Below, piece after piece: positions 1 through 42,023 of a DNA stretch of 64,000 bases. Within the stretch, counting starts at the first letter, position 1. Each line of letters starts with the position of its first letter. The notes beneath the pieces are model-generated. The model saw only the letters and a list, made by a program, of their open reading frames with translations. It did no database searches and had not been told where the DNA came from. The translations under genes and the position numbers were made by a program. Origin of the DNA: Escherichia phage vB_EcoM-BECP11; sequence record MW286157.1, one strand, 5' to 3'.

Positions 1-215
1 TCATTAATATAGTCTTTTACCGCTTTTTCTAATATACGTTTTGGATAAAGACGTTTATTTCTATTGACGACTTCTGCTTGCATGAATATTCCTTCGATGT
101 ATAAACCAGGTTTTAAACCTAAGTCTTTCCCATCATGGGATTCAAGCATTGGCACACCATCAATAATTTCGCCAGGTTGACCCCAAGTTTCAATTAGCAA
201 TTGGGGTTCATTCAT
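1..215 (-). CDS. 21: prohead core scaffold protein and protease gp21, N-terminal part; gene continues beyond window start
   Basis: Minus-strand frame from ATG at 213-215 translates MNEPQLLIE..., the T4 gp21 N-terminus; start overlaps gene 68 stop by one base. Confidence 0.75.
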   Translation of the reverse strand, partial: MNEPQLLIETWGQPGEIIDGVPMLESHDGKDLGLKPGLYIEGIFMQAEVVNRNKRLYPKRILEKAVKDYIN

Positions 216-29173: not shown

Positions 29174-29458
29174 ATGAAAACTTATCAAGAATTCACTTCA
29201 ACCACTAACGCTTCTACTTTGACTGAAGCGACCCTTACTTCTGAAGTTATTAAAGCAAACAAAGGACGTGAAGGTAAACCGATGATTAGCCTGGTTGATG
29301 GCGAAGAAGTCAAAGGTACTGTTTACCTGGGTGATGGATGGTCCGCTAAGAAAGATGGTGCTACAATCGTTATCTCCCCTGCTGAAGAAACTGCTTTGTT
29401 TAAAGCCAAGCATATTTCAGTAGCTCAGCTTAAAATTATTGCTAAAAATCTTTTGTAA
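29174..29458 (+). CDS. ipI: internal protein I (injected anti-restriction protein family)
   Basis: 94 aa starting MKTYQEF capsid-targeting sequence with L-x-E gp21 cleavage motif (LTE). Confidence 0.85.
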   Translation: MKTYQEFTSTTNASTLTEATLTSEVIKANKGREGKPMISLVDGEEVKGTVYLGDGWSAKKDGATIVISPAEETALFKAKHISVAQLKIIAKNLL

Positions 29459-30489: not shown

Positions 30490-30562
30490 TGGGAATTAGC
30501 CAAGTTGGTAAGGCACTGGATTTTGATTCCAGGATGCAAAGGTTCAAGTCCTTTATTCCCAG
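30490..30562 (+). tRNA. tRNA-Gln (UUG)
   Basis: Hand-folded cloverleaf: acceptor TGGGAAT/ATTCCCA, anticodon loop TTTTGAT, T-loop TTCAAGT; no encoded CCA. Confidence 0.85.
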
Positions 30563-30563
30563 C

Positions 30564-30650
30564 GCGAGAATGGTCAAATTGGTAAAGGCACAGCACTTAA
30601 AATGCTGCGGAATGATTTCCTTGTGGGTTCGAGTCCCACTTCTCGCACCA
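30564..30650 (+). tRNA. tRNA-Leu (UAA)
   Basis: Acceptor GCGAGAA/TTCTCGC, anticodon loop CTTAAAA, long variable arm, encoded CCA. Confidence 0.85.
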
Positions 30651-30655
30651 AATTT

Positions 30656-30729
<74 letters not shown>

Positions 30730-30739
30730 ATTTAATTTA

Positions 30740-30813
30740 CTCCGTGTAGCTCAGTTTGGTAGAGCGCCTGATTTGGGATCAGGAGGTCCAAGGTTCAAAT
30801 CCTTGTATGGAGA
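30740..30813 (+). tRNA. tRNA-Pro (UGG)
   Basis: Anticodon arm CCTGA-TTTGGGA-TCAGG, T-arm CAAGG-TTCAAAT-CCTTG, acceptor with two G-U pairs. Confidence 0.8.
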
Positions 30814-30815
30814 CT

Positions 30816-30905
30816 GGAGGCGTGGCAGAGTGGTTTAATGCACCGGTCTTGAAAACCGGCAGTCGCTCCGGCGACTCATAGGTTCGAATCCTATCGCCTC
30901 CGCCA
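30816..30905 (+). tRNA. tRNA-Ser (UGA)
   Basis: Acceptor GGAGGCG/CGCCTCC, anticodon loop CTTGAAA, long variable arm, T-loop TTCGAAT, CCA. Confidence 0.85.
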
Positions 30906-30910
30906 GTTTT

Positions 30911-30986
30911 GCTGATTTAGCTCAGTAGGTAGAGCACCTCACTTGTAATGAGGATGTCGGCGGTTCGATTCCGTCAATCAGCACCA
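30911..30986 (+). tRNA. tRNA-Thr (UGU)
   Basis: Acceptor GCTGATT/AATCAGC, anticodon arm CCTCA-CTTGTAA-TGAGG, CCA. Confidence 0.85.
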
Positions 30987-30987
30987 A

Positions 30988-31062
30988 GGCCCTGTAGCTG
31001 GAAGGTTCAAGCAAGCGACTCATAATCGCCAGATGGTGGTTCAATTCCACCCAGGGCCACCA
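30988..31062 (+). tRNA. tRNA with CAU anticodon (Ile2 type as in T4, formally could be Met)
   Basis: Acceptor GGCCCTG/CAGGGCC, anticodon loop CTCATAA, T-arm GGTGG-TTCAATT-CCACC, CCA. Confidence 0.75.
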
Positions 31063-31074
31063 AATTATGAATTA

Positions 31075-31161
31075 GGGGAGTTATCCCGTAGAGGTAGCGG
31101 TGTGGACTGTAAATTCATTGTCATTGCGACTCGGGTGGTTCGACTCCATCACTCCCCACCA
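31075..31161 (+). tRNA. tRNA-Tyr (GUA), type II
   Basis: Perfect acceptor GGGGAGT/ACTCCCC, anticodon loop CTGTAAA with U33 and A37, long variable arm with 3 bp stem, CCA. Confidence 0.7.
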
Positions 31162-31165
31162 ATTT

Positions 31166-31240
31166 GGATGTGTAGCTCAATGGCAGAGCGATCGCCTGTT
31201 AAGCGATTGGTTATAGGTTCGAATCCTATCACGTCCGCCA
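31166..31240 (+). tRNA. tRNA-Asn (GUU)
   Basis: D-arm GCTC/GAGC, anticodon arm ATCGC-CTGTTAA-GCGAT, T-arm ATAGG-TTCGAAT-CCTAT, CCA. Confidence 0.8.
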
Positions 31241-31354
31241 AATTTGTGACAACTGTCACATTAATATCTACTTGACGCGATTATAGGGGTTGAACTGATC
31301 ACTCTTCTCTTAATTTCGTGTGAAGACATCATGATTGTTGGAGTAGGTATTAAT

Positions 31355-31430
31355 GTGGCCGTAGTTCAGTTGGTAGAACTCGAGATTGTGATTCTCGTAG
31401 TCATGGGTTCGACTCCCATCGGTCACCCCA
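31355..31430 (+). tRNA. tRNA-His (GUG) with extra 5' G(-1)
   Basis: 8 bp acceptor including G-1 opposite C73, anticodon arm CGAGA-TTGTGAT-TCTCG, T-loop TTCGACT, CCA. Confidence 0.8.
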
Positions 31431-31434
31431 ATTA

Positions 31435-31510
31435 CGGGGCATAGCTCAGAAGGAAGAGCAAGGACCTTCTAAGTCCTGGGTCGTAGGTTCGATCCCTACT
31501 GCCTCGACCA
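31435..31510 (+). tRNA. tRNA-Arg (UCU)
   Basis: D-arm GCTC/GAGC, anticodon arm AGGAC-CTTCTAA-GTCCT, T-loop TTCGATC, CCA. Confidence 0.85.
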
Positions 31511-31528: not shown

Positions 31529-31879
31529 ATGAAAGGTAATGTTTATTTAGTAGTTCATGATTTAACATTCTATTTTAATCATAATGATACTGTTATTTCT
31601 GAACGCGTAATTAATTTGCTTTATCAGCATGCAGATTATGTTTATGTCGAAAACGAATTTGGTCATTGGCAATTTCTCAAAAATCGTTCATTTGGTTTAG
31701 ATGGTTACGAATATTTTGAACGTAAAGACCTTTTAGATAAAATTCCGTTATCTACACAATATCAAAATCACAAGTCTTTATATAAATGCCGTCCAATTCG
31801 AAATGCTGAATCTGCGTATGAAGTAATTGATTTATGGCGTAAACGTCGTGAACAGGTTGATGCTTTAAAAGAATACTAA
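31529..31879 (+). CDS. hypothetical protein
   Basis: 116 aa ORF with SD GAGGAAAA right after tRNA-Arg. Confidence 0.6.
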   Translation: MKGNVYLVVHDLTFYFNHNDTVISERVINLLYQHADYVYVENEFGHWQFLKNRSFGLDGYEYFERKDLLDKIPLSTQYQNHKSLYKCRPIRNAESAYEVIDLWRKRREQVDALKEY

Positions 31880-32186
31880 GAAACCGGGTCGCTACCGGTA
31901 AGTCGTCGGACTGATGTTCCCTGGAGTATAGTTTCCTCCCACAGTTTTACTGTGTTCTGGCTCTTTACTATCACAGCAGAAACGGCGCACCGAATTATCG
32001 ATTCGAGGAAATATCTTTGCCGTAAACCGAGTAGCGTTTTTGACGGAACGTTCGGATATGGTCGAGATATGGCCTTTTAAAAATATTGAGTAGCGTCAAC
32101 TGCTTAATAACCGGGTTCGAATCCCGGCGTTTCGTACAAACACTTGCCTTAGCAGGTGGAACCCCGACAAGGTTGCCGCAAGGCTT
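31880..32186 (+). ncRNA. candidate structured non-coding RNA region (possibly related to the small stable RNAs of the T4 tRNA region)
   Basis: About 300 bp with no credible ORF on either strand, GC-richer than surroundings, contains a T-arm-like hairpin CCGGG-TTCGAAT-CCCGG and ends at a strong terminator. Confidence 0.3.
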
Positions 32187-32215
32187 AGCCCCGACCGAAA
32201 GGTTGGGGCTTTTTA
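32187..32215 (+). terminator. intrinsic terminator, 10 bp stem with GAAA tetraloop
   Basis: AGCCCCGACC-GAAA-GGTTGGGGCT followed by TTTTT. Confidence 0.75.
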
Positions 32216-32260
32216 GTATAAATAAGTATATTAAATCCACGAATTAAAACAGGAAATAAG

Positions 32261-32734
32261 ATGAAATCATATACTCAATTTTTAAATGAAGCGGTGTTAA
32301 ATGAAGCATCTAGCACCGAAATTCAAGCTGTCGCAAAAGCAGCCATTGCAGCGGGTAAATATTCTTACAAAGATGCTTCTGATGAATCGCGATTTCAGTT
32401 CGCACGCGACATGAAAGCGGAAGGATTTACGGGAAATGCAGTTAGTATGGCCTGGAAAAGTTTAGTTGCTACTGGCGCTGCTTTTGCAAAGGCTTCGGGT
32501 AAACCTGCTCCTAAAGCAGATCCTAAAGTCGCACAAGAAAAAAATATCGTTAAAGGAATTATCTCCAAATATGAAGCTATCCTTAAAGAGCTTTTAGTAA
32601 TCAAAACTGAAGGCCAAAAGCTAGCTCGTGCTCATAGCTTTAAAGATAACCCACATGCTCATGACCTAGAGTATGTTGAAGACATCCAAAAAATTATTAA
32701 AGACCGCATTTGGTCTGCTAAACAAATCAAATAA
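32261..32734 (+). CDS. internal-protein-like protein with capsid-targeting sequence
   Basis: 157 aa starting MKSYTQFLNE-AVLNE-A, i.e. the MK-Y-F ten-residue capsid-targeting sequence plus L-x-E gp21 cleavage motifs seen in ipI and the ip gene after e. Confidence 0.65.
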   Translation: MKSYTQFLNEAVLNEASSTEIQAVAKAAIAAGKYSYKDASDESRFQFARDMKAEGFTGNAVSMAWKSLVATGAAFAKASGKPAPKADPKVAQEKNIVKGIISKYEAILKELLVIKTEGQKLARAHSFKDNPHAHDLEYVEDIQKIIKDRIWSAKQIK

Positions 32735-32741
32735 CATTCTT

Positions 32742-32770
32742 AGCCCCGACCAAAAGGTTGGGGCTTTTTG
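32742..32770 (+). terminator. intrinsic terminator, near-duplicate of the one at 32187-32215
   Basis: AGCCCCGACC-AAAA-GGTTGGGGCT followed by TTTTT. Confidence 0.75.
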
Positions 32771-32902
32771 GTATCTAGGCCTTTCCAGGCCTCTCTAGGC
32801 ATCATTTAGTTTCTACCCTTTATAATATATTATCCTATCCTTTGATTTCCCCTCCTTGCCCTAGAATTCCCCAAAACTTTTTAAAAAATTTTTCACAAAA
32901 CT

Positions 32903-33856: not shown

Positions 33857-34450
33857 ATGAACACACTGAAGAAAATTGTTGAGTTTATTCGCACTAAACT
33901 TGGTTCTGTTATGGCTAAAAATCTATCTGTTGAAGAACAGTATACTGCTGCAGCAGCAAAACTACTTGATAAGATTAAAGACCTAAAAACTGCTTCCATT
34001 AAATCTATTAACGAAGAAAAGCGTATTCGTGAACTTATTGTCGAAAAGAATAAGCAGGCCGAATCAAAAGAGCGCGAAATTCGCAAGCTCCTTTCTGAAG
34101 GTCAAGATGTAACAATGCATGCTAAACTCGGTTTACTATATCGTCGAACAGCTGAGCAGCTGACTACTAAAGCTGATGGTTATGCTGAAATGCGAATTGA
34201 AATCGCCAAGAAAGTAGTTGAGTTAGATGATGCTCGCCAAGAACTTGCAGTTAAATTGGAATATATCCGTGAAACTCGCGCCGCGAATGCCCTCGGAATT
34301 AGTACTGCTGATGATGTAGTTGAAATTGCAGCGCTGACTAAGGTTGATATTGAAGATACTCTTGCCCGAGTTGAAACCTTTAATGGCAATATTTCTGGGG
34401 TTGAAACTACCTCTGCCGATGTTCAGGAATATATTAATTCTCTGAAATAA
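33857..34450 (+). CDS. coiled-coil protein, unknown function
   Basis: 197 aa, largely heptad-like Lys/Glu-rich helices, SD AAGGA. Confidence 0.65.
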
Positions 34451-34456
34451 TGATAA

Positions 34457-34475
34457 GGGGCTTCGGCCCCTATTA
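34457..34475 (+). terminator. hairpin GGGGC-TTCG-GCCCC, weak terminator
   Basis: UUCG tetraloop hairpin after stop; U tract poor. Confidence 0.45.
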
Positions 34476-34498
34476 CTTGGAGTAAATAGGAATGAAAA

Positions 34499-35101
34499 AT
34501 GCAAAGTGATTTCAATTCAATGTTTGAAGAATTCCAAAGACAAGTTGATGTTCCAGACCAATTATTAAATGCTCTTAAACGTATGGCAGAAGGACGTAAT
34601 TATTATTGGGGTTCTTCATATGAAACTGATGAAAATCTTTCTGGAAGATTTTCTAGAGGTAAAAAGTCTTTAATACGTCCTGGAATACTTATTAACAGTA
34701 TTGAATCAATTCATTCATTAACATGCGATTTTGACGTTGAATTTACTGATTTTGTTTCTCCTGAATGGACGGTCTGTTATTTAAACGACGATTATGATTA
34801 TCTTGGCGTTTATAGTTTAAGTGATGCATGGTTTAAACGTAATTTACAAAAGTCAAATTTATTCTATATTGATACTACTGTAAAATTTCAGGGCAAGAAA
34901 TATTTCTTTACTCTTATAGTTGATTCTGAAACGAAGCATGAAAATAAGCGTATTCTTAGTAAAAAGAATATCTTAACTATTGTTGATGATCTTTTTGATA
35001 AATTCGTAGAAAATCCCAATTTTGAAAGCGATTTATTATTAGAAAAATTTGTGAAGGAATGTAGAGAATATGTCAAAGCCATCAATGTATCTTCCAAGTA
35101 A
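34499..35101 (+). CDS. hypothetical protein (first of four with C-terminal F-x-x-E/D-C-R motif)
   Basis: 200 aa ending ...EKFVKECREYVKAINVSSK. Confidence 0.6.
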   Translation: MQSDFNSMFEEFQRQVDVPDQLLNALKRMAEGRNYYWGSSYETDENLSGRFSRGKKSLIRPGILINSIESIHSLTCDFDVEFTDFVSPEWTVCYLNDDYDYLGVYSLSDAWFKRNLQKSNLFYIDTTVKFQGKKYFFTLIVDSETKHENKRILSKKNILTIVDDLFDKFVENPNFESDLLLEKFVKECREYVKAINVSSK

Positions 35102-35462
35102 ACCGTTGAAGTATGAATTAAAGCGCCAGCTAATTTCTACTGATGTATTAATAGGTCCTGTAATAGCTGTATCATTTGTAATTCTACTGGGGGTTGGAAT
35201 AGTTATAGATGTTATGACTGATATTGAATCTAATATAATATTTGCGTCAACACTAATTCTTCCAATGATAGTTCCATTTTTATTAGTACCTGTAAATTGG
35301 GTGGGATACTGGTATCAAGGAAGACACTATCGTAAACGTGTACGTGATTGGAAAGCCCAGTGTAAAAAGATTAAAAAGGAACATCAGCTTAAACTTGCTG
35401 CACATGAATTTGATGAAATTATGAAATTTGTTAAGGAATCACGATGCAAAAGCCAAAACTAA
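35070..35462 (+). CDS. membrane protein (C-terminal FVKESRCK motif)
   Basis: 130 aa, two hydrophobic helices, overlaps previous gene. Confidence 0.55.
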   Translation: MSKPSMYLPSKPLKYELKRQLISTDVLIGPVIAVSFVILLGVGIVIDVMTDIESNIIFASTLILPMIVPFLLVPVNWVGYWYQGRHYRKRVRDWKAQCKKIKKEHQLKLAAHEFDEIMKFVKESRCKSQN

Positions 35463-35806
35463 ATAAAGTCAAATATTCTCTTCCTGAGTCATTTTTAATT
35501 TTTGCTGTGGCGTTGGCTGCAGCTCTTGCGGGTAGTCTTTTTGGATTGTTAATTGACTGTATTATTTTAAACATTGACGGCACAGTAAATATAATAGAAG
35601 TTTGGAGTGAACTTCACTATACTAAAATTATTTCATTATTTTCATTCTTTGGTACCATGTTATATTTTCATTATGATAATTTTAAAATAAATTGGCAAAG
35701 AAAAAAGGATTACAAAATACAATTAAAGGAATATAACAGCTACATGTCTTATATTGAAAAAGAATCAATGGAAGAGTTTGTGAGTGATTGTAGGAAAATT
35801 AAATGA
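35444..35806 (+). CDS. membrane protein (C-terminal FVSDCRKIK motif)
   Basis: 120 aa, hydrophobic helices, SD AAGGAA. Confidence 0.55.
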   Translation: MQKPKLNKVKYSLPESFLIFAVALAAALAGSLFGLLIDCIILNIDGTVNIIEVWSELHYTKIISLFSFFGTMLYFHYDNFKINWQRKKDYKIQLKEYNSYMSYIEKESMEEFVSDCRKIK

Positions 35807-36291
35807 TTTTAAAAACTCGCTGGTATGATTTAGATGATGGGGATGATGGCATTTCAGTTAATAGAGTTGACTGGAATGGTTGTTCCGAAGATATGAAAAA
35901 TTTGTTGATTAGGGAGTTTAGAATGGGATATCAAGCAGCTAAGCCATCTATTATAACAGATGATAAATTCGTGTGTATTCATAATGGTCGCGCTAAGTTA
36001 ACGAACGCTGATTGGTTTACAAATAAGATTATGATTCTGTGGTATATCATTAGTCTTCCTGTGTCATCATTTGTATTTTGCTTCTTTGGTGAAAGTCCAA
36101 TAGGCAGAACAGGAGATTGGATTCTTTTAATTATGCTTGTTAATATTTTGACAGCAGCAATATTATCAGGAATATGGTGCGTGTTCATTGAAATGCCATG
36201 GCGTTTACGCAGACAGCAAAAGATTTTTGATGAAAAGAAATATACTCAAAATTTAAATAACTTTATCACTGAATGCAGGAAATTAAAATGA
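35803..36291 (+). CDS. membrane protein (C-terminal FITECRKLK motif)
   Basis: 162 aa, ATGA coupling to previous gene. Confidence 0.55.
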   Translation: MILKTRWYDLDDGDDGISVNRVDWNGCSEDMKNLLIREFRMGYQAAKPSIITDDKFVCIHNGRAKLTNADWFTNKIMILWYIISLPVSSFVFCFFGESPIGRTGDWILLIMLVNILTAAILSGIWCVFIEMPWRLRRQQKIFDEKKYTQNLNNFITECRKLK

Positions 36292-36728
36292 AAACACTAT
36301 CAGCTGGTATTATCTTTATGACAGAAGATAAAGATTTATTTATGGGTCGGGTTACTGGTTCTCGTAAGCCTGGAATGATGGCACATCGTTGGGATATTCC
36401 AAAGGGCCGTGTAGAAAGTTCTGATTTGAATGCACTGGAAGCTGCAAAAAGAGAATGCTTAGAAGAGACCGGTTTTAGCAATTATAATCCAGACCTTCTA
36501 GAAGACCTAGGTGTATTTAAATATTCTAGTAATAAAGACTTACAGTTATTTTATTATACGATTCCAGTAGAGCATGAGATGTTCAGAAATTGCCATTGCG
36601 AGTCTTATTTTGAAAATAAAGATGGCGTTATGATTCCAGAGATGGATGCTTTTGCTCTTATTCCTCGTACTCAGTGGCAATATGTGATGGGTCCTTCACT
36701 TTACCGAATAATGAACAGCCTCTTTTAA
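36288..36728 (+). CDS. nudE: Nudix hydrolase NudE
   Basis: Nudix box GRVESSDLNALEAAKRECLEETGF; ATGA-coupled start at 36288 (an in-frame ATG 15 nt upstream would give 151 aa). Confidence 0.8.
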   Translation: MKTLSAGIIFMTEDKDLFMGRVTGSRKPGMMAHRWDIPKGRVESSDLNALEAAKRECLEETGFSNYNPDLLEDLGVFKYSSNKDLQLFYYTIPVEHEMFRNCHCESYFENKDGVMIPEMDAFALIPRTQWQYVMGPSLYRIMNSLF

Positions 36729-37259
<531 letters not shown>

Positions 37260-37263
37260 AGTT

Positions 37264-37293
37264 GTTTACTTTCTCCTAGAATTGTGATAGTAT
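37264..37293 (+). promoter_or_regulatory. T4-type early promoter
   Basis: GTTGTTTACT ... TGATAGTAT. Confidence 0.6.
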
Positions 37294-37347
37294 ATTCACA
37301 GTTGCTTGAAGAGACAAATTACTAATTAAAATATTTAAAGGAAATAT

Positions 37348-37821
37348 ATGAAAACATATCAAGAATTTATCACTGAAGCAGCTATTAATTCTCAAATTAT
37401 TGCTGAATCTTTTACTGATCTTTTGAAATTTAAAAAAGGTCAAAAAATCACTGCTGTATTGGATGATGGTACAGAAGTTGAGATGGATGTACAGGGATAT
37501 AATTATGCAGTAGATGGAAAATTGTATAATAAATCTCATGCTAAATTTGATTCATTTGACGACTTTGTTAATACAGTTGAAGATGAAAAAACTCGTCGAT
37601 CCATTGCAACTGGTGATGCTAAGGTTCTTATGGCACATGGTCATGAACGCATTCGCGCTAAACAGAATAAAATGGGTGAAGATAATTTCGCATTAGTTGG
37701 TTATCAATCTGGTAAACAAACTTATGGCTATCAACGTACTGCTACCATGTATAATAAAAATGGTAAAATTGCCTTTGTAAATAGTAAAGGTTCTATTCAG
37801 TACGTTAAATCGTTCAAATAA
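37348..37821 (+). CDS. internal protein (ipII/ipIII locus) with capsid-targeting sequence
   Basis: 157 aa starting MKTYQEFITE-AAINSQIIAE-S; sits after e where T4 has ipIII and ipII, but the size differs from both. Confidence 0.75.
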   Translation: MKTYQEFITEAAINSQIIAESFTDLLKFKKGQKITAVLDDGTEVEMDVQGYNYAVDGKLYNKSHAKFDSFDDFVNTVEDEKTRRSIATGDAKVLMAHGHERIRAKQNKMGEDNFALVGYQSGKQTYGYQRTATMYNKNGKIAFVNSKGSIQYVKSFK

Positions 37822-37958
37822 TATGGGAACAGCCTGGACCTCATTTGAGGTATTCCCGCCAACCTGTGATAAGGTCGAGCCAAAGCGCGGTAATGGGTAA
37901 TGCAGGAATGGACAACTCATGTGCCATGGAATGGCCCAAAAACCTTAAGAGAAATAAC

Positions 37959-38501
37959 ATGAGAACATTTTTAACTGGCCCGTATCTATCCTTGATGAAT
38001 GCTTTTACACACCATTCTGATGCTAGAGTAGAAGAACTCTGTAAGAATGATTATCTTCCACCAATGGAAGATGTGCTCAAACAGTACTGCACACTTCGTA
38101 TAGATGGTGGACGTCAATCCGGTAAATCAGTTGCTGTGACTAACTTTGCCGCTAATTGGCTGTATGATGGCGGAACAGTTATTGTTCTTTCTAATACTTC
38201 AGCTTACGCTAAAATTTCTGCTGGCAACATTGAAAAAGAATTTTCTCGTTATTCTAGCGATGATATTCGATTCCGTTTATTTACTGATTCTGTCCGTAGT
38301 TTTATCGGTAATGAAGGTCATAAATTCCGTGGGTTATCGCTTTCTCGTATCTTGTACATAATTGACGAACCTATTAAAGCTCCTGATATGGATAAGATTT
38401 ACAATATCCATATTAAAACGGTACAACACTGTTGTCGAAGCTATAATGCTGAAACAGGTGAAACAGTTCGTCCTCAATTTTTTGTGATTGGAATGCAATG
38501 A
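37959..38501 (+). CDS. small P-loop NTPase-like protein
   Basis: Walker A-like GGRQSGKS and Walker B-like ILYIIDEP; start uncertain (in-frame ATGs at 37893, 37908, 37926, 37959; track ORF begins at TTG 37845). Confidence 0.5.
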   Translation: MRTFLTGPYLSLMNAFTHHSDARVEELCKNDYLPPMEDVLKQYCTLRIDGGRQSGKSVAVTNFAANWLYDGGTVIVLSNTSAYAKISAGNIEKEFSRYSSDDIRFRLFTDSVRSFIGNEGHKFRGLSLSRILYIIDEPIKAPDMDKIYNIHIKTVQHCCRSYNAETGETVRPQFFVIGMQ

Positions 38502-38827
38502 TGACAGACACACAGCTTTTCGAATATCTCTATTTTTCACCAAAAACTATTAAAAATAAATTGGTGAATCATTTTGAAATTTTAGCAAATAATAACATTT
38601 TGAGCGAATTTTATCCCAAGCAATACAAATTACAAAAAGGCGTATTCAAAGGATGCAGAGTTTTGTGTACTGCTCCTAACGCGCAGTTAATGAATAAAAT
38701 TCCATATTTTACCATGGAATTTATTGATGGACCTTTTAAAGGACTAATCACCCAAAGTTTAATGGCATATGATTCTGAGCCATTTTTAATTAAAGAACAA
38801 TCTTGGATAAATTTATTTTCTAATTGA
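38498..38827 (+). CDS. hypothetical protein
   Basis: 109 aa, ATGA coupling. Confidence 0.55.
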
Positions 38828-38834
38828 GGTTTAT

Positions 38835-39197
38835 ATGAAAGCATATCAAATTCTTGAAGGCACACATAAAGGTACTATTTATTTTGAAGATGGTATTCAA
38901 GCACGAATTATTGTCTCTAAAACCTTTAAAGAGGACTCTTTTGTAGACCCAGAAATTTTCTACGGTTTGCATGCCCGTGAAATTGAAATTGAGCAACAAC
39001 CTACAGTTAAAATTGAAGGTGGTCAACACCTGAACGTTAACGTTCTGCGTCGTGAAACTCTGGAAGATGCAGTTAAGCATCCGGAAAAATATCCGCAGCT
39101 GACCATCCGTGTATCAGGTTATGCAGTTCGCTTTAACTCTCTGACTCCGGAACAGCAGCGCGACGTTATCGCTCGTACCTTTACTGAGAGTTTGTAA
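38835..39197 (+). CDS. autonomous glycyl-radical cofactor (GrcA/YfiD-like) protein
   Basis: C-terminus ...[59 protein letters not shown] carries the RVSGY glycyl-radical motif; 3' half uses host-like CTG/CCG/CAG codons. Confidence 0.8.
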
Positions 39198-39418
39198 TGG
39201 CAAAGATAATTATTGAAGGTTCTAAAGATGTGCTAAATGCTTTCGCCGAGTGGTTTAGTAATTCAGGCGAACAGCAATTTAACGAAGCCTGGAATATGGG
39301 TGATATTGATGGAATTTATCCTACGACAGAAATTTCTGTTCAAGGATATGGCATTCATGAACCTATTCGTTTAGTTGAATATGATTTATGTACTGGTGAG
39401 GAAGTCAAATATGATTGA
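39197..39418 (+). CDS. hypothetical protein
   Basis: 73 aa, TAATG coupling. Confidence 0.55.
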   Translation: MAKIIIEGSKDVLNAFAEWFSNSGEQQFNEAWNMGDIDGIYPTTEISVQGYGIHEPIRLVEYDLCTGEEVKYD

Positions 39419-39677
39419 AGACATTAAAGGTTATAAGCCGCATACTGAAGAGAAAATCGGTAAAGTGAATGCTATCAAAGACGCTGAAGTTCGTTTAGGA
39501 CTTATCTTTGATGCTTTATACGATGAATTTTGGGAAGCATTTGATAGCTGTGAAGACTGTGAATTCGCGAAGAATTATGCTGAAAGCCTCGATCAGTTAA
39601 CTATTGCTAAAACGAAACTCAAAGAAGCCAGTATGTGGGCTTGTCGTGCAGTGTTCCAACCAGAGGAAAAATACTAA
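39411..39677 (+). CDS. acb2: likely Acb2 (Vs.4) cyclic-dinucleotide sponge
   Basis: 88 aa from ATG 39411 with SD GGTGAGGAAG; second gene upstream of regB, the T4 vs.4 position. Confidence 0.6.
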
Positions 39678-39955
39678 TGGCTCAATTAAGTGCAGGGTTT
39701 GGTTATGAGTATTATACTGCACCTCGTCGTGTATCTGCCGCTCCTAAGAAAATTCAAAGTCTTGATGACTTCCAGGAAGTAGTCCGTAAAGCTTTTCAGG
39801 ACTATGCACGTTATCTTAAAGAAGATTCACAGGACTGTCTCGAAGAAGATGAAATTGCTTACTATGAGCAGCGTCTTGAACAGCTCAAAAATCTACATGA
39901 GGTTCGTGCAGAAGTTTCAAAGTCTATGAATAAATTGATTAGATTTAAAGAATAA
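39677..39955 (+). CDS. hypothetical protein (vs.3 position)
   Basis: 92 aa from TAATG-coupled ATG 39677, SD GAGGAAAAA. Confidence 0.55.
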
Positions 39956-39957
39956 CT

Positions 39958-39987
39958 GTTTACTTTTCCTCTTGACTGTGGTATAAT
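39958..39987 (+). promoter_or_regulatory. T4-type early promoter for regB
   Basis: CTGTTTACT ... TGTGGTATAAT. Confidence 0.65.
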
Positions 39988-40014
39988 TTTTCTATCAGTT
40001 AAGAGGAGAATAAC

Positions 40015-40476
40015 ATGACTATCAATACAGAAGTTTTTATCCGTCGAAATAAGCTTCGTCGTCACTTTGAGTCGGAGTTTCGTCAAATTAACAATGAGAT
40101 TCGTGAGGCATCAAAAGCAGCAGGGGTCTCATCGTTTCATCTAAAATATTCTCAGCATCTTCTTGATCGTGCAATTCAACGGGAGATTGATGAGACATAT
40201 GTTTTTGAATTATTCCATAAAATAAAAGACCATGTTTTAGAAGTTAATGAATTCCTGAGTATGCCTCCGCGTCCTGACATTGACGAGGATTTTATTGATG
40301 GGGTTGAATATCGTCCTGGACGTTTAGAAATCACAGATGGAAATCTTTGGCTTGGATTTACGGTTTGTAAGCCTAATGAGAAGTTCAAAAACCCGTCACT
40401 TCAATGCAGGATGGCAATTATCAACAGTCGTCGTTTACCAGGAAAGGCTTCTAAAGCAGTAATTAAAACTCAATGA
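40015..40476 (+). CDS. regB: site-specific endoribonuclease RegB
   Basis: 153 aa beginning MTINTEVFIRRNKLRRHFESEF, recognised as T4 RegB. Confidence 0.85.
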   Translation: MTINTEVFIRRNKLRRHFESEFRQINNEIREASKAAGVSSFHLKYSQHLLDRAIQREIDETYVFELFHKIKDHVLEVNEFLSMPPRPDIDEDFIDGVEYRPGRLEITDGNLWLGFTVCKPNEKFKNPSLQCRMAIINSRRLPGKASKAVIKTQ

Positions 40477-40483
40477 GGTAAAC

Positions 40484-41029
40484 ATGAGAAAAGCACTACT
40501 CGCTGGTCTATTGGCCATTTCTATGATGGCACATAGCTCCGAGCATACTTTCAGTAATGTCCAACTCGATAACATGCGTTACGCGTATCAATTCGGGGAA
40601 CAGTTTTCTAAGGATGGAAAATATAAAACACATCAAAATGTTCATAAGAGTGGATTGGGTCATATAATGGCTGCTATTTTATGGCAAGAAAGCTCTGGCG
40701 GAGTTAATTTAAAATCTAAACCAAAGCATCACGCCTACGGAATGTTCCAAAATTATTTGCCTACTATGCGAGCAAGAGTTAAGGAACTTGGTTATAATAT
40801 GACCGATGCTGAAATAAAAAGAATGTTGAATAAACGGTCCAATTCAGCTTCCTGGGCGTACATTGAACTTTCTTATTGGTTAAATATACATAAGGGCGAT
40901 ATAAGAAAAGCAATATCCTCTTATAATTCGGGATGGAATGTTAAAGCAGGTTCTAAATATGCTTCTGAAGTCCTAGAAAAGGCTAATTACCTTAAAAATA
41001 ATAAACTTTTGGAAATAGTAAATGACTAA
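40484..41029 (+). CDS. secreted SLT-domain (lytic transglycosylase-like) protein
   Basis: Signal peptide MRKALLAGLLAISMMAHS; SLT motifs WQESSGG, YGMFQ, SYNSGWN. Confidence 0.7.
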   Translation: MRKALLAGLLAISMMAHSSEHTFSNVQLDNMRYAYQFGEQFSKDGKYKTHQNVHKSGLGHIMAAILWQESSGGVNLKSKPKHHAYGMFQNYLPTMRARVKELGYNMTDAEIKRMLNKRSNSASWAYIELSYWLNIHKGDIRKAISSYNSGWNVKAGSKYASEVLEKANYLKNNKLLEIVND

Positions 41030-41363
41030 AATTTTGGTTTTATGTATAGGATTAATTTCATTTTCTGCGTTAGCAGATACATCATATACTGAAATTAGAG
41101 AGTATGTAAACCGTACTGCAGCGGATTATTGCGGGAAAAATAAAGCATGCCAAGCTGAATTTGCGCAGAAATTAATATATGCATATAAAGACGGAGAAAG
41201 AGATAAATCAAGCAGATACAAAAACGATACATTGTTAAAACGATATGCTAAAAAGTGGAATACCTTAGAATGTTCAGTTGCGGAGGAGAAAGATAAAGCC
41301 GCTTGTCATTCAATGGTTGACCGTTTGGTAGATTCTTATAATCGAGGATTGAGTACTAGATGA
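41022..41363 (+). CDS. secreted protein at the T4 vs position (identity tentative)
   Basis: 113 aa with signal peptide MTKILVLCIGLISFSALA; placement by synteny only. Confidence 0.5.
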   Translation: MTKILVLCIGLISFSALADTSYTEIREYVNRTAADYCGKNKACQAEFAQKLIYAYKDGERDKSSRYKNDTLLKRYAKKWNTLECSVAEEKDKAACHSMVDRLVDSYNRGLSTR

Positions 41364-41839
41364 TTGTAAAATATATCAAGGGCGATATTGTCGCCCTATT
41401 TCTTCAAGGTAATATTATTGCGCACGGGTGCAATTGTTTTCATACTATGGGTTCAGGTGTAGCGGGTCAATTAGCAAGAGCCTATCCCAAAATTTTAGAA
41501 ATAGATAAAACCACTACTGAGTACGGTTCTCGTGATAAATTAGGCGATATGTCTATTGTTTTTAAACATAAACCTAATGGTTTTGGCATATGTTATAACT
41601 TGTACACGCAATACGAACCAGGTCCTAATCTTGATTATGGTGCTTTAGTAAACTGCATGATAGAATTAAATCTACAGGCAGAAACCCTTTTGTTTAAACC
41701 GGTAATTTACATTCCGCGTATAGGTTGTGGTATTGCTGGCGGCGATTGGGATAAGGTTTCTAAATTAATCGACATGTTTACTCCTGATATTGATTTAATA
41801 GTGGTGGATTATGAAAGTACATTACCCACATCCGTTTGA
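41360..41839 (+). CDS. macro-domain protein (ADP-ribose binding or hydrolase fold)
   Basis: 159 aa; N-terminal GDIVALF...NIIAHGCNCFHTMGSGVAGQL resembles macro-domain nucleotide-binding motifs; ATGA coupling. Confidence 0.65.
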   Translation: MIVKYIKGDIVALFLQGNIIAHGCNCFHTMGSGVAGQLARAYPKILEIDKTTTEYGSRDKLGDMSIVFKHKPNGFGICYNLYTQYEPGPNLDYGALVNCMIELNLQAETLLFKPVIYIPRIGCGIAGGDWDKVSKLIDMFTPDIDLIVVDYESTLPTSV

Positions 41840-42023
41840 TCCTAAAAACAAAGCAGTAATTATTCGTCAATGGGAACGCATTTGCCGTACTAAATGCCCA
41901 ATTAATAGTCCACATGATGTAGATAAAGACTACATTGGAACATTCGTTGAATATACCTTTATTGATAAGAAAGGTCGTAAACAACATGTAGAAGAATATT
42001 GCTTAAAGGTTACATGGTTATGA
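41811..42023 (+). CDS. hypothetical protein
   Basis: 70 aa ORF overlapping neighbours. Confidence 0.5.
   Translation: MKVHYPHPFDPKNKAVIIRQWERICRTKCPINSPHDVDKDYIGTFVEYTFIDKKGRKQHVEEYCLKVTWL

Follow-up and report, generated by a model that had tools for sequence, protein, structure and literature searches.

The gene following lysozyme in Escherichia phage vB_EcoM-BECP11 encodes the catalogued internal protein Ip4, a putative packaged inhibitor of host defence

Downstream of the lysozyme gene e, phage T4 carries the internal-protein genes ipIII and ipII, followed by denV. In the phage studied here, the same interval is occupied by one ORF of 157 codons, which raises the questions of whether this gene encodes a new protein or a variant of a T4 internal protein, and what such a protein might do during infection. 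We analysed a stretch of 64,000 nucleotides, referred to below as the window, which derives from a Tequatrovirus (T4-like coliphage) and, between 33 and 42 kb, shares 97.8% identity with Escherichia phage vB-Eco-KMB42. The original prediction, which was made from the sequence, described the ORF as a single internal protein with a capsid-targeting leader, located after lysozyme and unlike T4 IPII and IPIII, and its coordinates, length, leader and neighbouring gene proved to be correct.

Identity and distribution of the gene following lysozyme

The ORF begins with an ATG at position 37348, 88 nt downstream of e, and codes for a protein with the N-terminus MKTYQEFITEAAINSQIIAES (ORF list). The features of the locus are as follows:

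36731..36738 (+), T4 late-promoter consensus TATAAATA upstream of e, found by pattern search
36765..37259 (+), lysozyme gene e, the left flank; an ORF annotated as e at the homologous position in T2 and T4
37262..37306 (+), conserved element after e, GTTTAC followed by the imperfect palindrome AATTGTGA-N8-TCACAGTT
37333..37350 (+), conserved cassette head ATTTAAAGGAAAyATATG with RBS and start codon, identified in alignments upstream of ip4, ipIII, ipII and a 105-codon ORF of phage PinkRuby
37348..37821 (+), ip4 (ipIV) coding sequence, 157 codons plus stop, assigned by Pfam, PHROG, identity to T2 and RB32, and synonymous-only differences
37348..37377 (+), capsid-targeting leader MKTYQEFITE, residues 1-10, ending in the protease motif I-T-E and matching the T4 IPII/IPIII leader
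37378..37407 (+), variable linker AAINSQIIAE, residues 11-20, ending in a conserved I-A-E (alignment and motif scan)
37408..37818 (+), residues 21-157, forming the predicted mature globular domain (15.5 kDa, pI 9.3)
37822..37958 (+), right joint and conserved non-coding stretch following the last cassette, which is ip4 here and denV in T4
37959..38501 (+), vs.8 homologue, the right flank, 77% identical to T4 Vs.8; the PHROG 1488 profile starts at the ATG at 37959

The protein matches the Pfam family DUF7412 (PF24183) with an E-value of 5.7e-96 and a score of 319.4 bits against a cut-off of 27, with residues 1-157 aligning to positions 1-158 of the profile and hence over its full length, and no other Pfam family was matched at E-values up to 1. 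It also matches PHROG 3155, annotated 'internal virion protein' (6e-102), and is 100% identical to ipIV of T2 (YP_010073775) and Ip4 of RB32 and 98% identical to Ip4 of K3 (UniProt Q38388). Judged by these matches, the gene following lysozyme is that of the catalogued internal protein Ip4/ipIV and is not new; near-identical genes are annotated as ipIV in T2 and as Ip4 in RB32, RB51 and JK1, and these annotations, together with citations in the literature, are the basis for our use of the name. The Ip4 proteins of T2, RB14, RB32 and K3 are the same protein at the same position after e, with no difference of substance, and the order e-ip4-vs.8 is common to the present phage, T2 and RB14. The implied novelty of the gene could therefore not be upheld, as the protein had already been named in these four phages.

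Members of the Ip4 family are present in 470 of 50,697 phage records (tblastn). Ip4 proteins with at least 99% identity are encoded in 290 of the phage records, including T2, RB32, RB51, JK1 and the Yersinia phage PST, and 160 records from T4-like phages of Klebsiella, Raoultella and Salmonella contain versions that are 60-80% identical (tblastn). The IPIII family was found in only 261 records, which makes Ip4 the commoner occupant of the post-e locus and T4 the less typical phage. Since Ip4 is identical in T2 and hundreds of T4-like phages, the locus of the present phage is an ordinary one. Among 1.84 billion representative proteins, a profile search returned only seven matches, three of which are genuine distant family members, and one match to a repeat protein was set aside as a probable chance match. 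When the widened profile was used in a second, word-indexed search, no further members came to light, and sequence searches against the PDB and NCBIfam gave only noise.

Comparison of ip4 with the genes of related phages revealed six synonymous codon differences in T2, three in JLBYU31 and 18 in PinkRuby, and no non-synonymous difference in any of them (27/0 in total). This pattern indicates that ip4 is under strong purifying selection and that the gene is functional. As all substitutions are synonymous on the plus strand, two overlapping minus-strand ORFs (37276..37539 and 37693..37920) were treated as spurious. In an alignment of 13 family members with 61-82% identity, 64 positions are invariant, including the glutamate residues E10 and E20.

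Leader, predicted processing and relation to the T4 internal proteins

The leader MKTYQEFITE is identical at nine of 10 residues to the leader MKTYQEFIAE of T4 IPII and IPIII, in agreement with the capsid-targeting role that the original prediction had assigned to it. For T4 IPIII, residues -10 to -1 are annotated as a removed signal peptide (record X04567.1). By motif scan, Ip4 contains two L/I-x-E motifs, I-T-E10 (next residue A) and I-A-E20 (next residue S), which are of the type that is cleaved after the glutamate by the T4 prohead protease. E10 does not vary across the family, and E20 is fully conserved in a set of 13 sequences and almost so in a set of 15; I-A-E20 might thus be a possible second cleavage site. 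T4 IPII, which shares the leader and the cassette head with Ip4, likewise has a possible second L/I-x-E site about nine residues past the first. The enzyme that is expected to process the Ip4 leader is encoded at the edge of the window, adjoining the genes for gp68, gp67 and the gp20 portal:

3..215 (-), prohead protease gene 21, of which the N-terminal 71 codons lie within the window (Pfam Peptidase_S77, 3.9e-33)

Ip4 therefore has a leader of the internal-protein type and a gp21 motif, gp21 is encoded in the same phage, and the gene lies after e, one of the two variable ip loci of T-even phages, the other being located after 57B. Based on these properties, Ip4 is very probably a packaged internal protein. 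Our literature search for virion proteomics or cleavage data on Ip4 found none.

Beyond the leader, the similarity to the T4 proteins ends. With the mature part as query, BLASTP gave no significant match to T4 IPI, IPII or IPIII, the best E-value for IPIII being 15, and when alignments of 15 Ip4 and 12 IPIII family members were compared with hhalign, only the 12-13 leader residues could be aligned. T4 IPIII, the inhibitor of GmrSD-ECOR17, shares the leader, the upstream region and the position after e with Ip4, and the routes of packaging, processing and injection are presumably the same; it differs from Ip4 in length (193 versus 157 aa) and in its Pfam family (PF26861 versus PF24183). T4 IPII, the inhibitor of GmrSD/BrxU-ECOR21, has 100 aa versus 157 aa in Ip4 and shows only a weak, non-significant resemblance to it outside the leader (E-value of 0.11 for the mature part). 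T4 IPI (PF11634, IPI*), the inhibitor of GmrSD-CT596, is unrelated in sequence, is encoded at a different locus and has a leader of 19 residues; Ip4 has no Pfam PF11634 hit, and the BLASTP alignment of the two proteins is confined to the leader region. As far as these comparisons reach, Ip4 is unrelated to IPI, IPII or IPIII beyond a leader of 12-13 residues, which bears out the view that the protein is unlike T4 IPII and IPIII; it was not found to be a length or sequence variant of IPIII, either by BLASTP or by profile comparison.

The mature part of Ip4 is basic, with a pI of 9.1-9.3 and 17 lysine residues. An AlphaFold model of the full-length protein made with 13 close homologues was unusable, with a pLDDT of 50.7 and values below 50 for residues 1-20. 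When residues 21-157 were modelled and two distant family members were added, the pLDDT rose to 92.6. The only significant match of this model in a library of viral structures (BFVD) was Ip4 of K3 (Q38388), and a fold search of the PDB returned generic small beta-barrels only. According to the model, mature Ip4 is a confidently predicted folded domain that appears to be without structural precedent. Neither the structure nor the sequence searches revealed an enzyme-like neighbour or a catalytic family, which fits the idea that Ip4 is a binding protein. IPI, likewise small and basic, is processed and injected, has a compact alpha/beta structure and acts as a binding inhibitor (PMC3012670); by analogy, Ip4 probably works in the same manner and inhibits by binding.

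The locus as a probable site of cassette exchange

The flanks of ip4 map to T4 by blastn, with positions 34000-37379 of the window corresponding to T4 69762-66384 (93%) and positions 37821-41998 to T4 64942-60738 (91%), so that only 37380-37820 is unique relative to T4. This segment comprises 441 bp of mature Ip4 coding sequence, versus 1441 bp in T4 for mature ipIII, ipII and denV. On the left, homology with T4 breaks off at codons 11-12, directly after the shared leader codons, and on the right it restarts 4 nt past the ip4 stop codon. No homologues of denV, ipII or ipIII were found anywhere in the 64-kb window; denV is thus missing from the post-e locus, as it is in T2. The classical higher UV sensitivity of T2 is attributed to its missing v gene, denV encoding endonuclease V, a pyrimidine-dimer glycosylase. 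In other phages, denV is found before, between or after the ip cassettes.

To the right of ip4, the stretch of about 137 nt at 37822-37958 is highly conserved among Tequatroviruses, with indels of 1, 6 and 8 nt, and its GGACnnnnCAnGnGCCAnGGAATGGCCC core is kept even in the Jiaodavirus pKp20. As there was no Rfam hit, a fold z-score of -0.25 and no covariation, we do not claim it as a structured RNA. The first 38 codons of vs.8 as annotated in T4 lie in a frame that is broken by these indels, and the ATG annotated as the vs.8 start in T4 is a TTG in the present phage; the real start of vs.8 is probably the conserved ATG at 37959.

A sample of locus architectures, spread across 703 records matching the interval from e to vs.7, contained several arrangements besides e-ip4-vs.8: T4 has e-ipIII-ipII-denV-vs.8, JLBYU31 has e-denV-ip4-vs.8, PinkRuby has e-denV-orf105-ip4-vs.8, and JK08 has e-denV-vs.8 without any ip gene. 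In the Klebsiella Jiaodavirus pKp20, the order is e-Ip4-denV-IPIII, followed by an ORF of 100 aa, the size of IPII, which is annotated as hypothetical, and a vs.8-like gene. In the related Jiaodavirus 311F, the gene after Ip4 is annotated as ipII, and a gene for another internal head protein comes after Ip4 in the Gelderlandvirus STML-198. Overall, at least six locus architectures have the same cassette head in common. We had considered Ip4 as an allelic replacement of ipIII and rejected this idea, since both genes occur in one locus in pKp20, which makes Ip4 an independent cassette rather than an allele of ipIII. The description of ip4 as simply standing in the place of ipIII and ipII is therefore too narrow, as denV is missing as well and Ip4 occurs together with IPIII and IPII in pKp20. 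The 105-aa ORF of PinkRuby (1181-1498 of the examined segment), annotated 'hypothetical protein' and located between denV and ip4, starts with the leader MKTYKEFIAES, and by this leader and its cassette head it is a further internal-protein cassette that is not annotated as such.

The head common to every ip cassette, ATTTAAAGGAAAyATATGAAAACrTATmAAGAATTTAT, combines the RBS with the leader codons and forms a repeat of about 50 nt. Together with the conserved sequence on the right-hand side, this repeat appears to be an obvious substrate for homologous cassette exchange. Such an exchange model fits published work that describes PeSL-like elements at both IP loci and more than 30 IP variants (PMC2839356). 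The element at 37262-37306, which consists of GTTTAC, an 18-nt spacer and TG-n-TAGTAT, the latter overlapped by the palindrome AATTGTGA/TCACAGTT, resembles the PeSL-like elements described at IP loci (PMC2839356). It is nearly identical after e in the window, T2, T4, JLBYU31 and JK08, whatever cassette follows, and a diverged copy precedes T4 ipII. In its layout it resembles a T4 early promoter combined with a stem-loop, and it might function as such. A pattern search for perfect late promoters found none in the spacer between e and ip4, and the region 36600-38100 has no predicted plus-strand terminator. Late read-through into ip4 would probably start from the late promoter of e.

The statement that the phage has a single internal protein is accurate for the post-e locus and does not extend to the window as a whole, in which two further loci are of note:

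29174..29458 (+), IPI orthologue at the 57B-proximal ip locus, 90.5% identical to T4 IPI (Pfam IPI_T4, 1.3e-51)
32261..32734 (+), second 157-aa ORF with the capsid-targeting-like leader MKSYTQFLNE followed by A

The IPI orthologue has a long leader, MKTYQEFTSTTNASTLTE, and because of it the present phage possesses an inhibitor of GmrSD-CT596 besides Ip4. The second 157-aa ORF is an insertion relative to T4, located between rnaC and e.8. It is preceded by the T4 late promoter TATAAATA at 32217 and bracketed by a 36-nt direct repeat (32184-32219 and 32739-32774), which looks like an intrinsic terminator hairpin. The encoded protein belongs to PHROG 2280 ('unknown function') and is found in 511 phage records, with all sampled entries annotated 'hypothetical protein'; given its leader, it may be an unrecognised internal protein. 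Between these two loci lies a tRNA array (30490-31510, +) of 11 genes, versus eight in T4, for Gln, Leu, Gly, Pro, Ser, Thr, Met/Ile (CAU anticodon), Tyr, Asn, His and Arg. The T4 homing endonuclease gene segB is absent from this region, and a 116-aa ORF after tRNA-Arg (31529-31879) has no counterpart in the T4 segments compared.

Possible function of Ip4

Internal-protein loci are known as hypervariable anti-defence hotspots (PMC12373910, PMC3012670, PMC2839356), as had been assumed for the locus described here. Silas et al. (2025) reported that Ip1, Ip2 and Ip3, which are alike only in their leader, each inhibit one GmrSD-type type IV enzyme, with no cross-protection (PMC12373910), and IPIII without its leader still acts in the cytoplasm (Srikant et al., 2022; PMC9391042). 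Plating assays on GmrSD hosts, which had been proposed as a check on Ip4, have largely been performed already: none of the GmrSD variants tested was reproducibly inhibited by 'ip4-10' (PMC12373910, Supp. Fig. 9), where the ip4 gene used may differ in sequence from the present one, and T2, with an identical Ip4, is restricted by both GmrSD-ECOR21 and GmrSD-ECOR17 (PMC12373910). As the restriction of T2 by GmrSD-ECOR17 is relieved when IPIII is supplied, Ip4 does not have the specificity of IPIII. The GmrSD family is very diverse, and of 15 groups that were synthesised, eight were active (PMC12373910). A dCMP hydroxymethylase is encoded in all three genera that carry Ip4, and 136 Klebsiella-phage records contain this enzyme versus 135 with Ip4. 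In the records searched, Ip4 thus appears confined to hydroxymethylcytosine phages, consistent with a role that is tied to modified DNA.

We infer the packaging, cleavage, injection and target of Ip4 from these data and propose the following model. Ip4 would be made late in infection, probably from transcripts that start at the e late promoter and read through into ip4, and its 10-residue leader would direct it into the scaffolding core of the prohead. There, gp21 would cut after I-T-E10 and possibly again after I-A-E20, and the remaining 137-147 residues, a basic protein with a compact alpha/beta structure, would be packaged together with the DNA. Upon infection, Ip4 would enter the cell together with the DNA and act as an immediate, stoichiometric binding inhibitor of a host defence protein. 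By analogy with Ip1-3, the most probable target would be a modification-dependent nuclease of type IV, namely a variant of the GmrSD family outside the tested panel. The cassette itself would move by homologous recombination, using the repeat of about 50 nt with RBS and leader on the left and the conserved sequence on the right. On balance, we favour an anti-defence function for Ip4, and with slightly more reserve the model as a whole, in which Ip4 is a packaged, processed and injected inhibitor of an early host defence, most likely a type IV enzyme. That the target is specifically an enzyme of the GmrSD type is a tentative proposal, and a defence beyond the GmrSD variants tested, either an unsampled GmrSD clade or another class of first-response immunity, seems possible though somewhat unlikely.

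Alternatively, Ip4 could be injected to inhibit or modulate a host system other than GmrSD, such as a different nuclease, an abortive-infection sensor or a housekeeping protein. The negative GmrSD panel, the restriction of T2 by two GmrSD enzymes and a fold that has no precedent among known inhibitors all speak for this possibility, as does the occurrence of Ip4, IPIII and IPII in one locus, since this indicates that the function of Ip4 is not redundant with those of the other two. However, GmrSD enzymes are the targets of all three internal proteins characterised so far, the number of active groups examined is small for so diverse a family, and the limitation of Ip4 to hydroxymethylcytosine phages fits a modification-dependent target, so that we regard a system outside the GmrSD family as rather unlikely.

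It is also conceivable that Ip4 is mainly a structural, DNA-associated filler of the head, which neutralises charge and assists in DNA packing or ejection and has no specific host target. Its basic character would suit such a role, the lysine residues of T4 internal proteins contact the packaged DNA, in which about 1000 internal-protein molecules are embedded (PMC3012670), and the GmrSD panel yielded no target for Ip4. On the other hand, the well-ordered globular domain predicted for Ip4, its many invariant aromatic and glycine residues and the lack of any amino acid change across DNA that is 96-99% identical, point to a constraint beyond what a generic polycation would need. Moreover, Ip4 is a dispensable, shuffled cassette that is missing in T4 and in phages of the JK08 type, and each of the three characterised internal proteins proved to be a specific inhibitor, which makes a purely structural role improbable. 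That Ip4 has diverged from T4 IPIII in length or sequence and kept its specificity, as the shared leader and the position directly after e might suggest, is hardly credible and at the sequence level already refuted, given the negative BLASTP and leader-only hhalign results, the separate Pfam families, the presence of both genes in the pKp20 locus and the restriction of Ip4-carrying T2 by GmrSD-ECOR17 unless IPIII is supplied.

Taken together, the gene, its name, its leader and the exact order of the locus are already present in T2, RB14, RB32 and hundreds of other records, and in this respect the sequence adds nothing new. What remains of value is functional, as Ip4, now favoured as an injected inhibitor of host defence, is the most frequent cassette at this locus and its amino acid sequence is almost frozen in E. 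coli phages. If Ip4 does inhibit a defence beyond the GmrSD variants tested, the commonest internal-protein cassette of the sequenced Tequatroviruses points to an unrecognised, widespread defence against T-even phages in Enterobacteriaceae. Identification of the target of Ip4 would probably reveal another defence that limits the host range of T-even phages, and this would be relevant to the choice of therapeutic phages.
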